Virus record (IMG/VR): IMGVR_UViG_3300035128_000109
Span: 1 to 61,217 of that record
Direction: 5' to 3' (one strand)
DNA: 61,217 nucleotides
Source: a virus
Taxonomy: Duplodnaviria > Caudoviricetes
Shown here one piece after another: positions 59,625-61,217 of the stretch. Numbering within the stretch: the first letter of the stretch is position 1; each line of letters opens with the position of its first letter. The translations under genes and the position numbers were made by a program. The notes under the pieces are model-generated. The model did no database searches, had not been told where the DNA came from, and worked only from the letters and a program-made list of their open reading frames with translations.

Positions 59625-59852
59625 GCCTAACGGGGCGCGTGATAAGCTGCCAACGGAGTACGGGGCAGGCTAGACGCCGTTTTCATAGCGGGATTTACGG
59701 ATGCGTTCATCTACATATCTAATAATTTGCCTATAAATTTCATTTCTGTAGTCGGCTTCTTCTTTTGAGATATAAGCATCCGTTTCACTTGTAGGCTGTT
59801 CGGAAACGGGAGTTTCCCCGTACCGTTGGACAGCTTCATTACGAAGTTCGGC
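59625..59852 (-). other. attC: Atypical attC (cassette 5), 228 bp
   Basis: GCCGAAC-TTCGT-AATGAAGC-TGTCCAACGGTACGGGG...CCCCGTACTCCGTTGGCA-GCTTATC-ACGCGCCCC-GTTAGGC. Confidence 0.8.
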
Positions 59853-60035
59853 GTCGCGTAGACTTCCAACCCCCGCCTGTCGCACGTCATGACAATTCCA
59901 ACAAATCACGAAATGTGGGAAATTAGCATCATCGGGAACCAAAACGTCTGACTCTGTGAAATCATTACAAGAAGGACACCAGGCATGACCTCCATAAGGT
60001 TCCACGAGTTTATATTTTGATTTACTCAAGTTCAT
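59670..60035 (-). CDS. Zn-ribbon hypothetical protein (cassette 5); C-terminal half inside attC
   Basis: AGGAG RBS; CPSC...CWNC. Confidence 0.7.
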   Translation of the reverse strand: MNLSKSKYKLVEPYGGHAWCPSCNDFTESDVLVPDDANFPHFVICWNCHDVRQAGVGSLRDAELRNEAVQRYGETPVSEQPTSETDAYISKEEADYRNEIYRQIIRYVDERIRKSRYENGV

Positions 60036-60070
60036 TTGCTATCTCCTGTTTTTGCAAGTAAGACGCCGTG

Positions 60071-60145
60071 CTTCGTAATTGATCACGCGCGCCGTTCGAC
60101 CGGGCGATTGTGGTCGCTCCCCAGACCACATGAGCGACGCCGAAC
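60071..60145 (-). other. Cassette-5 5' leader with anti-attC segment
   Basis: 60082-60096 complements 59629-59643 (14/15). 60071-60079 complements 59838-59846 (9/9). Confidence 0.8.
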
Positions 60146-60936
60146 GGTGGCGCGGATGAGCCGCCAACGGAGTACAGGGGGGGGTTAGCATCCTGTTTCC
60201 ATAGCGGTCGGCAGGGCGTGTTTGAGAAGATACCCGCCGATAAACTCTGTATAGGCTGGCGGGATTGCTTCTGCCAATTCTCGCCTATTCATCCAGTCAA
60301 TATCTTGTGCAATTGAACCGTCCTTTCGATCAAAATTATTTCCAACACACGATATTGCTTGCGCTCCGTTTCGGAATGCAGAATACCCGTGAAAGGCGTT
60401 GGTAAATAATTTGCGACACTGGCACGTTGCAGGAGCAAAATAAATAGGCGGGTTTACTTCAAATAACCTGTGCCTAATCAGTGGCAATCCAAACATTGTT
60501 CCACAAAGCATCAACGGATTGCGAAGTGGTGCGCCTGGTACATTTTCTATTACAAAAGGCTTTTTTGTTCTCATAAGTAGTTTTCTAACCGGCACAATTA
60601 ATTTTGGATACTTTTTTGTTGATAAACCCTTTAGTCTGGAATACCTTTGGCATGGCGGGCTTGCATGAAAAGCGTCAAATATATCAGCGAATTCTCGTAT
60701 AGCTTGCAAGGCATCCATTTTGTGAAATTCAAAAGGATAGCGAGGCTGATCTTCGACATCAAACCCTACGACTTCGAACCCTGCTCGATAGTATCCCATC
60801 CCTGCTCCGCCAGCCTTGCAAAATAGGTCGGCTATTTTTGGCTAGACACAAAAGCCCTGCCCTTTTCGCTTGTAGGATGTTGAGATAACGGGATTGCTCC
60901 CTGTACCGTTGGTCGGTCTCCATTCGCTTGTTAGGG
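60139..60936 (-). other. attC: Giant attC (cassette 4), 798 bp, with a gene in its loop
   Basis: Left arm CCCTAAC-AAGCG-AATGGAGA-CCGACCAACGGTACAGGG pairs with right arm CCCTGTACTCCGTTGGCG-GCTCATC-CGCGCCACC-GTTCGGC. Confidence 0.75.
60185..60841 (-). CDS. C5-cytosine DNA methyltransferase-like domain; start unclear because an in-frame TAG precedes motif I
   Basis: ADLFCKAGG (upstream of the track start), HASPPCQ, IENV, RHRLFE and EAIPPAY motifs. Confidence 0.8.
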   Translation of the reverse strand, partial: PKIADLFCKAGGAGMGYYRAGFEVVGFDVEDQPRYPFEFHKMDALQAIREFADIFDAFHASPPCQRYSRLKGLSTKKYPKLIVPVRKLLMRTKKPFVIENVPGAPLRNPLMLCGTMFGLPLIRHRLFEVNPPIYFAPATCQCRKLFTNAFHGYSAFRNGAQAISCVGNNFDRKDGSIAQDIDWMNRRELAEAIPPAYTEFIGGYLLKHALPTAMETGC

Positions 60937-61021
60937 CGAACGGCCCTTGCAAGTCTAGTGGTTTTGATCTCGAAATCATGATTGTTTGGACACCTTTTAC
61001 CTTTCAGCGAAAGCCCTTACA

Positions 61022-61095
61022 AAGCGAATTGCATCCGCGCCACCGTTAGGGCGAGCGATTGGGGCCGCTCTTTGGCTCCATGAGTTCGCCCTAAC
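61022..61095 (-). other. Cassette-4 5' leader with anti-attC segment
   Basis: 61032-61047 complements 60143-60158 (16/16). 61022-61029 complements 60922-60929 (8/8). Confidence 0.8.
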
Positions 61096-61217
61096 GGCGC
61101 AGCGGATAAGCTACACAGGGCGGGCTTGTATCCGCTGCCATAACGGTTAATTCTTCTCGCTTGCAAGCTGTTCAGGGTTAGTAGCCTGCCCTGTGATAGC
61201 TTCATTCGCAAGTTCGG
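61089..61217 (-). other. attC: Atypical attC (cassette 3); R'' clipped by window end
   Basis: CCGAAC-TTGCG-AATGAAGC-TATCACAGGGCAGGCT...AGCCCGCCCTGTGTA-GCTTATC-CGCTGCGCC-GTTAGGG. Confidence 0.8.

Follow-up and report, generated by a model that had tools for sequence, protein, structure and literature searches.

How does a gene cassette come to begin with an inverted copy of the arms of its own recombination site, and what might such a copy do? The attC site of integron cassettes is the textbook case of a recombination site that is read as folded single-stranded DNA (ssDNA), and its unpaired central spacer is held to be essential for the efficiency and direction of recombination. The question is raised by a stretch of 61,217 nucleotides (nt) that makes up the whole of virus record IMGVR_UViG_3300035128_000109, and that we refer to as the window. 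This wetland virus carries an integron, with an integrase gene (intI), an attI site and five cassettes (C1 to C5) all on the one record, and three of these cassettes, C3, C4 and C5, start with a segment, termed the leader, that is complementary to both spacer arms of the cassette's own attC. The record looks complete (CheckV completeness estimate 100%), is classed as linear and has no end repeats. Integrons in phage genomes are already in print (PMC9892861).

Leaders of cassettes 3 to 5 and the predicted star fold

According to the initial annotation, C3, C4 and C5 each start with G/TT (the slash marks the crossover) and a hairpin closed by AAC, followed by a bipartite segment that pairs with the right and left spacers of the same cassette's attC. 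We found that the hairpins are present and fold as described, and that every one of the six leader/spacer pairings is exactly as claimed (Table 1). In a chance test, the last 15 nt of a cassette were compared with the 2.5 kb upstream and the best reverse-complement match was recorded, for seven distinct cassette ends. The ends of C3 and C4 matched at 15/15 positions and that of C5 at 14/15, in each case within the cassette itself, whereas four ends of the canonical class (those of C1 and C2, and those at L011 and L099, two loci with close IntI relatives) reached only 9-11/15. We conclude that the leader complementarity is far beyond chance and reflects an intramolecular structure, as had been proposed; the absence of the leader from C1 and C2 was likewise borne out (Table 1).

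On the minus strand the elements run in the order R' (G/TT...), loop, reverse complement of R' (...AAC), reverse complement of the right spacer, GAT(G), CA, ATT, reverse complement of the left spacer and a degenerate reverse complement of R''. Leader and hairpin are one feature, namely the reverse complement of the cassette's own circularised attC from which the stem-loop of L box and variable terminal structure (VTS) alone has been omitted. The ~50-nt hairpin is R' paired with its reverse-complement copy, and two to three bases link one arm to the other. Aligned with its own attC, the C4 leader matches at 11/12, 9/9, 4/4 and 8/8 positions, and then at 7/8 with a one-base shift; over 15 arms, with the alignments extended past the helices, 201 of 249 aligned columns are Watson-Crick pairs. 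The earlier view that the leader pairs with the normally unpaired central spacer thus needs to be widened: both spacer arms are indeed paired, but not the spacer alone, since the leader complements R'-spacer and spacer-R'' in full. A contrast that had been drawn between right spacers of 9 nt in C3 to C5 and of 7 nt in C1 and C2 hinges on the parsing of the L box: if the count runs from GTT/AAC up to the first pair of the L box, left spacers measure ~8 nt and right spacers 9-10 nt in either class.

Table 1. Positions of the array elements in the window, with the related cassettes of genome G019 (ORF, open reading frame).
Feature	Position	Strand	Details
intI, integron integrase gene	1069-2064	-	TIGR02249, 376.4 bits against a cut-off of 265; also PF00589 and PF13495
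attI and first crossover G/TT	~1066-1068	-	directly after the intI stop codon
Cassette 1	1067 to 793	-	canonical attC of this IntI clade (AAC-AAAGCGTG...ACGCAAGCC-ATT); no leader; best reverse-complement match of 3' end 10/15
Cassette 2	792 to 125	-	canonical attC; no leader; best match of 3' end 10/15; two small ORFs and own promoter
Cassette 3	124 to 1 and 61217 to 61095	-	247 nt, no ORF; continues at base 1 if the record is circular
H3, hairpin of R' and its reverse-complement copy, 5' end of cassette 3	79-125	-	DNA fold -16.7 kcal/mol, z -5.2
Leader of cassette 3	51-81	-	anti-right-spacer 67-81, pairs with 61093-61107 (15/15); junction; anti-left-spacer 56-64, pairs with 61204-61212 (9/9); degenerate reverse complement of R'' 51-55; P1 and P2 in the minimum-free-energy fold
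attC of cassette 3	61093-61217	-	~125 nt; R' AAC and right spacer 61093-61107; L box/VTS to ~61203; left spacer and R'' 61204-61217
Cassette 4	61094 to 60145	-	
H4, hairpin, 5' end of cassette 4	61045-61095	-	-15.7 kcal/mol, z -5.9
Leader of cassette 4	61013-61047	-	anti-right-spacer 61032-61047, pairs with 60143-60158 (16/16); anti-left-spacer 61022-61029, pairs with 60922-60929 (8/8); degenerate reverse complement of R'' 61013-61021
attC of cassette 4	60143-60941	-	~800 nt; right spacer and L' 60143-60181; L'' and left spacer 60899-60929; R'' 60930-60941, 12/12 with own 5' end
Cassette 5	60144 to 59631	-	
H5, hairpin, 5' end of cassette 5	60094-60145	-	weaker outer arms; -11.1 kcal/mol, z -1.9
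Leader of cassette 5	60062-60096	-	anti-right-spacer 60082-60096, pairs with 59629-59643 (14/15); anti-left-spacer 60071-60079, pairs with 59838-59846 (9/9); degenerate reverse complement of R'' 60062-60070
attC of cassette 5	59629-59857	-	~230 nt; right spacer and L' 59629-59668; L'' and left spacer 59817-59846; R'' 59846-59857, 12/12 with own 5' end
G019 star cassette	L156 103-271		compact attC, ~75 nt
G019 star cassette	L158 1501-1685	-	compact attC, ~75 nt

The integrase is an integron-type tyrosine recombinase by its TIGR02249 match, and a gene cassette is expected to have its boundaries at the G/TT of a GTTRRRY core and an inverse core (R'', RYYYAAC) that complements its own 5' end and not that of its neighbour. 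Counted over 12 positions, R'' matches the cassette's own 5' end better than that of the next cassette in C4 (12 versus 6), C5 (12 versus 11), C1 (9 versus 6) and C2 (10 versus 6); the R'' of C3, which crosses the join of the record ends, is ambiguous (6 versus 5). This preference is a signature of IntI crossover at G/TT. Two further candidate sites were rejected: the leader hairpin as an independent canonical attC, since its GTT...AAC order is the reverse of R''...R', and the CCAAC/GTTGG further inside the L arms of C4 and C5 as the actual core site, since the own-5'-end signature points to the outer GTT.

As ssDNA, a cassette with a leader is predicted to fold as a three-arm star (a three-way junction) in place of the usual attC hairpin with its unpaired central spacer, and we refer to such cassettes as star cassettes. 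In the predicted fold the first arm pairs R' and the right spacer with the leader and is capped by a ~25-nt hairpin loop, the second pairs the left spacer and R'' with the leader and has a capping loop that can hold cargo, and the third consists of L box and VTS, where cargo is possible too. Four predicted helices lie round the tight junction, P1 (right spacer/leader), P2 (left spacer and R''/leader), P3 (L box/VTS) and H (R' and its copy); H stacks on P1 in the predicted circular fold and the L stems carry bulges. The star is the minimum-free-energy structure of the circular ssDNA in all five cassettes that were folded, C3 to C5 and two from the genome G019 described below, and the long stem across the crossover that the initial annotation had foreseen in the circularised cassette is present in these predicted folds. 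Forcing the leader to remain unpaired costs 30.1, 24.8, 23.6, 17.3 and 25.9 kcal/mol in the five cassettes. Shuffle z-scores for the star cassettes that have no ORF are -10.2, -7.1 and -9.8, against -1.6 for the canonical C1.

Cargo is placed differently in the three cassettes of the window, lying in the VTS in C4 and in the loop between leader and R'' in C5, while C3 has none. The canonical size range of attC is 57-141 bp (PMC5027507); C3, at ~125 nt, falls within it, but the sites of C5 (~230 nt) and C4 (~800 nt), which have their cargo inside attC, lie above it, and in the predicted fold the leader pairs with the spacer, which is thus not free.

The bottom strand of the cassettes, which is the plus strand of the window, folds better than the top strand in four of the five star cassettes, by 3.9-9.5 kcal/mol, and positions in the leader helices that are not Watson-Crick pairs are G.T on the bottom strand eight times and on the top strand three times, a weak asymmetry; in C3, for example, the TT of R'' faces GG. 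The copied crossover triplet has lost its TT in all three leaders of the window, each time by a different change and with the flanks still paired. This loss looks like the disarming of a second cleavage site. Strand bias and disarmed triplet together give a weak but consistent indication of a role in bottom-strand ssDNA, the substrate of IntI, and not in a sense transcript.

Recurrence of the design and maintenance of the pairing

The closest IntI relative belongs to an Anaerolineales metagenome-assembled genome (MAG), and the same design was met again when 401 genomes of that phylum were searched. A pattern search for this attC class gave 19 matches in these genomes, against 6 for the reversed control, and four of the matches lay in a single genome, G019. 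All four are attC-like and two of them are complete star cassettes (G019a and G019b) with no ORF and with 166 and 182 nt between crossovers (Table 1). Their spacers, loops and joint differ from those of the window, and the G019 IntI, which is partial and lies at a contig end, is 58% identical to that of the window. As G019 combines this design with compact attCs and no ORF, the licensing of long attCs, which had been suggested as a role of the leader, cannot be the whole story.

Contigs from four wetland sequencing runs indicate a larger star family. A 929-nt variant that replaces C4 has the same hairpin core as H5 with other outer arms, further attC ends carry other spacers, and one attC has the ends of C5 with an interior of 110 nt instead of 181 nt; contigs of runs X3 and X4 show related ends and a C5-like 5' part. 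Position 60091, the single mismatch between the C5 leader and its right spacer, is G in the window and C in three other contigs, which would give perfect pairing with the window's own C5 attC, and one attC end in run X3 carries the other allele of the mismatch position.

No star cassette beyond those of the window and G019 was found in viral contigs or beside other IntI relatives, the scans of viral contigs being ones that may leave out records near the window's own genome. In the viral contigs the L' motif gave two matches, both by chance in coding sequence; the leader-plus-hairpin pattern gave five, none with a hairpin; and the attC-class pattern gave three, of which two were chance matches in coding sequence and the third (L171) lay 70 nt from a contig end. 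Among the matches listed for the H4/H5 core pattern, 115 were examined, three were flagged and none was genuine. Loci selected by their IntI (9 from viral, 43 from genome and 80 from metagenome contigs) were scanned twice, with a first scan that would have missed the G019 type and a second that overlooks C5, for its weak hairpin arms, and C3, for the end join. This second scan returned 21 rows, which after removal of repeated DNA came down to C4 of the window, the two G019 cassettes and seven judged to be chance; its block-shuffled controls gave 17 hits in three replicates. Homologues of the C4 protein were not found in the viral contigs. When 59600-61217 was compared with plasmids and phages by BLAST, the sole match was 66 nt within the methyltransferase ORF. 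The array was not found in the genomes that hold loci L011-L014, and relatives of G019, up to its order and class, supplied no further useful genomes.

Is the complementarity maintained over time? The leader-hairpin modules of C4 and C5 are homologous, with a shared GCGATTG.GG.CGCTC...CATGAG core, and the L boxes of the two cassettes are homologous too. Although several spacer positions have diverged in both partners, each anti-spacer best fits its own attC, with 15 and 14 of 15 matches on the diagonal versus 9 off it; the inner stem of H4 and H5 also shows compensated differences. Because the modules are homologous and the anti-spacers nevertheless follow their own attCs, we conclude that complementarity has been maintained and that both partners have changed together, in agreement with the covariation of leaders and spacers noted earlier. 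This is not what one old neutral duplication would leave. Selection for pairing could account for it, and so could repeated copying or conversion. The further idea that the spacers serve as unique addresses did not hold up, as the C5 leader has its G.G mismatch, the right spacer of C5 recurs at a neighbouring attC in run X4 and the leader of G019b fits the attC of G019a better than its own.

Two other attC-class sites in G019 are interrupted right at the GTT of R'' (L148, minus strand, ~878-1300; L158, minus strand, ~290-700). The inserts start with GTGTGCGA; at their other end they have a hairpin similar to domain V of group II introns, together with an HNH-like ORF end. Going by these motifs we take them to be remnants of attC-targeting group II introns, presumably; at the gathering score Rfam gave no match in L148, L156, L158 or L159.

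What the leader might do

We tentatively favour the reading that the leader is a cis-acting element of bottom-strand ssDNA and works as a conformational lock or switch in competition with the canonical fold of attC. It would act in cis on the strand that is recombined by IntI, and the star would compete with the canonical fold by sequestering R', R'' and both spacer arms in duplex. The two folds exclude each other, since R' and R'' are not free to form a helix together as long as the leader engages both. Flexibility of the synapse is ascribed to the unpaired spacer, and the site VCR2 with a paired unpaired-central-spacer (UCS) region was recombined efficiently only when a mutant IntI1 was supplied (PMC5027507); for this reason the star would be expected to change recombination. 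It is this reported impairment of wild-type IntI1 by a paired central spacer, together with the exclusion of canonical attC by the star, that leads us to favour a lock or switch. By inhibiting or by scaffolding, the star may set how often, or in which state, a cassette is recombined. The leader itself may have arisen by fold-back or template-switch copying across the folded L hairpin, an origin that is likely because the leader is the product that such a jump would give and because the joint of G019a lies between CGGC repeats. A natural family whose cassettes bring along the complement of their two spacer arms and two R boxes would demonstrate either cis-gated folding of attC or acceptance of a branched substrate by IntI, and claims about star cassettes are directly testable by existing conjugation-based recombination assays.

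A further reading, which we think unlikely, is that the star is itself the recombination substrate, with the leader replacing the R''-spacer strand as partner of the cleaved R' strand. The IntI site would then be assembled at a three-way junction whose geometry is independent of the loop contents, and star cassettes with no ORF would be self-splinted 'empty vectors' able to receive genes into one of their loops. That would offer a concrete path by which gene cassettes, whose origin is unsolved, could have arisen. The star family does link a structural backbone with no ORF to members that bear genes in different loops, and so bears on how genes become cassettes.

Several observations weigh against a function of the leader as lock or switch. 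C3 is intact only when the record ends are joined; this join is plausible because contigs of the probable source run break exactly within the array, and missing sequence inside C3 could exist. The joint of G019a is flanked by a CGGC direct repeat, a mark that slippage would leave, and the leader of G019b matches the G019a attC at 14/15 positions and its own at 13/15. There are three uncompensated mismatches or irregularities (G.G in P1 of C5, T.G in P1 of G019b and a 1-2-nt irregularity in P1 of G019a), and gene conversion or mismatch repair in the folded strand could keep the complementarity in the absence of any selected function. About four independent lineages are known, namely C3, C4, C5 and the closely related G019 pair, and the two scans beside IntI relatives added none, most contigs with the closest IntIs ending 0-430 nt after intI. 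The strand asymmetry is weak, and the fold energies are those of naked DNA, in which single-stranded DNA-binding protein and IntI are ignored.

The main rival, and a serious one, is the by-product of template switching that the initial annotation had named as the alternative. The leader would have no function, and fold-back or template-switch synthesis during replication of the folded site or the excised circle would have left it as an inverted copy of attC in which the hairpin was skipped; its fit would be due to recency, re-copying or gene conversion. We regard this as possible, if somewhat on the unlikely side. A polymerase that copied the attC strand and jumped the base of the L hairpin would make exactly such a leader, the short-spacer inverted repeat of R', loop and copied R' is the usual mark of snap-back synthesis, and the joints, with microhomology in G019a, differ between the window and G019. 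Uncompensated mismatches exist, and at the position of the C5 mismatch leaders (position 60091) show both alleles, as do attC-type ends, which fits exchange among copies. One recent copying event is nevertheless insufficient, as the C4 and C5 modules share descent and yet have spacers that differ on both sides; the design also persists in two distant replicons with unrelated loops, the second crossover triplet has been lost in three ways while its flanks still pair, and the bottom strand is favoured.

Another reading is a role in RNA, in which the leader of a read-through transcript would pair with its own 3' attC and circularise the cistron, for stabilisation, RNase III-type processing or control of translation. 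attC folding in mRNA affects the translation of cassettes, the leader of C5 immediately precedes the ribosome-binding region of that cassette's ORF, the perfect promoter of cassette 2 lies upstream and could transcribe C3 to C5, and the same helices form under RNA parameters. We consider such a role improbable, however: the sense transcript corresponds to the top strand, which folds worse than the bottom strand in four of five cassettes with RNA parameters as well, and on which the wobble positions are A.C, while C3 and the two G019 cassettes have no ORF to express and Rfam gave no match at E<=1 in 59300-61217. Still further from what we expect, and highly improbable, is a guide, as small RNA or ssDNA, that acts in trans, or a function of the palindromes as sites for the neighbouring Xer-like recombinase (58357-59481) and not for IntI. 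Although the pairing is bipartite and largely sequence-specific and a second tyrosine recombinase gene adjoins the end of the array, we found no promoter-like or terminator-like site in 59500-61217, and all pairing partners lie inside the same cassette, so that the guide-like leader proposed by the initial annotation is not borne out. The cassette ends bear the IntI signature, with the G/TT crossover and R'' complementary to the own 5' end, and in G019 the design lies beside an IntI homologue (an Xer-like gene was not looked for there).

How does a star cassette with the lock or switch that we favour compare with known systems? In CTX-phage-type attP, two inverted copies of a dif-like site fold in ssDNA into a duplex-like substrate for the tyrosine recombinases XerCD. 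There, as here, inverted site arms on one strand make ssDNA branched and double-strand-like; but in attP the fold creates the site, whereas here a canonical attC exists already and the copy would compete with it. In the IS200/IS605 family, 4-nt guides beside subterminal hairpins act in cis in ssDNA with an HUH (Y1) transposase. Star cassettes similarly have short stretches beside a hairpin that pair in cis with bases flanking the cleavage point, but the pairings are of 8-16 nt and the site is that of IntI; no HUH (Y1) transposase gene was found among the ORFs around the array. With canonical cassettes they share a genuine IntI, the G/TT crossover, an R'' complementary to the own 5' end, spacers of ~8/9 nt as in C1 and C2 and a bulged L stem. 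They differ in the inverted, L-less copy of attC arms added at the 5' end, which pairs with both spacer arms and both R boxes, and in the predicted ground state, a three-way junction and not a hairpin with a bubble.

Gene-less cassettes have been documented and ascribed promoter activity (PMC6557892; bioRxiv 10.1101/2023.11.21.568050). C3 and the two G019 members resemble them in having no ORF and consisting of structured DNA only, but no promoter-like site was found in C3 to C5, and the content here is a self-complementary copy of the recombination site. Site-derived DNA at the cassette front is likewise found in delta-attI-type cassettes, in which the remnants at the 5' end are attI-derived and in direct orientation (PMC12901181), while the star leader is a reverse-complement copy of the cassette's own attC. 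In the literature searched we met neither a cassette that bears an inverse copy of its attC arms nor one that folds as a three-way junction; supplementary cassette catalogues (e.g. that of PMC9892861) could hold such cases. Phage integrons and cassettes with no ORF are known; on this limited evidence, the inverse attC-arm copy and the three-way-junction cassette are apparently new.

Array layout, cargo and neighbouring genes

The intI gene is transcribed in the same direction as the cassettes, i.e. towards them and not divergently. The attC type of C1 and C2, from which the class of C3 to C5 differs, also adjoins the closest IntI relatives at L011, L097, L099 and L070 (AAC-AMAGCGTG...ACGCARRCC-GTT). 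At L011 (10863-11703), which belongs to the Anaerolineales MAG and has the closest long IntI (60% identity), the junction after intI reads ...TCATAA/GTTGGG as in the window and is followed by two cassettes with attCs of the canonical class and no leader. Cassette 2 has a perfect sigma-70 consensus promoter (TTGACA-16-TATAAT, 763 to 736, 12/12 matches) and overlapping small ORFs (704 to 360 and 388 to 149) that match no family, a layout typical of self-expressed cassettes such as toxin-antitoxin pairs.

In a contig of the probable source run that has equal depth (18.9 versus 18.3), the different 929-nt insert takes the place of C4 between 60136 and 61091. This swap shows variation at the level of whole cassettes, close to where their boundaries are expected; excision junctions were not observed. 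The piece 61091-61217 has double depth (35.1) and forms a separate 418-nt contig that runs 291 nt beyond the end of the window. We conclude that the phage population is polymorphic for cassette content, and this is probably why the record ends at 61217.

The ORF of C4 (60185-60799; DNA methyltransferase-like, phrog_363, E 9e-26) lies wholly in the terminal loop of attC. Its ATG start comes after a stretch, PKIADLFCKAGGAG (60785-60865, minus strand), that resembles what we take to be motif I of such enzymes; this stretch is in frame upstream of the ORF and follows immediately on a TAG stop, and none of the usual start codons intervenes. The match to the PHROG profile spans positions 68-212 of 327, and the gene may be truncated or inactive. 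In C5, an ORF of 121 aa (59670-60035, minus strand) begins within the leader/R'' loop, continues across R'', left spacer and L'' of its own attC and stops immediately ahead of L'; it matches no family.

The last cassette is directly followed, on the minus strand, by the Xer-like gene named above, which encodes an XerC/D-like tyrosine recombinase of 374 aa, and by an ORF for a 72-aa zinc-ribbon protein (59342-59560). The DNA that follows C5 begins with GTTAGGCGTCGC, an 11/12 match to the 5' end of C5, and looks like the stump of a further cassette.

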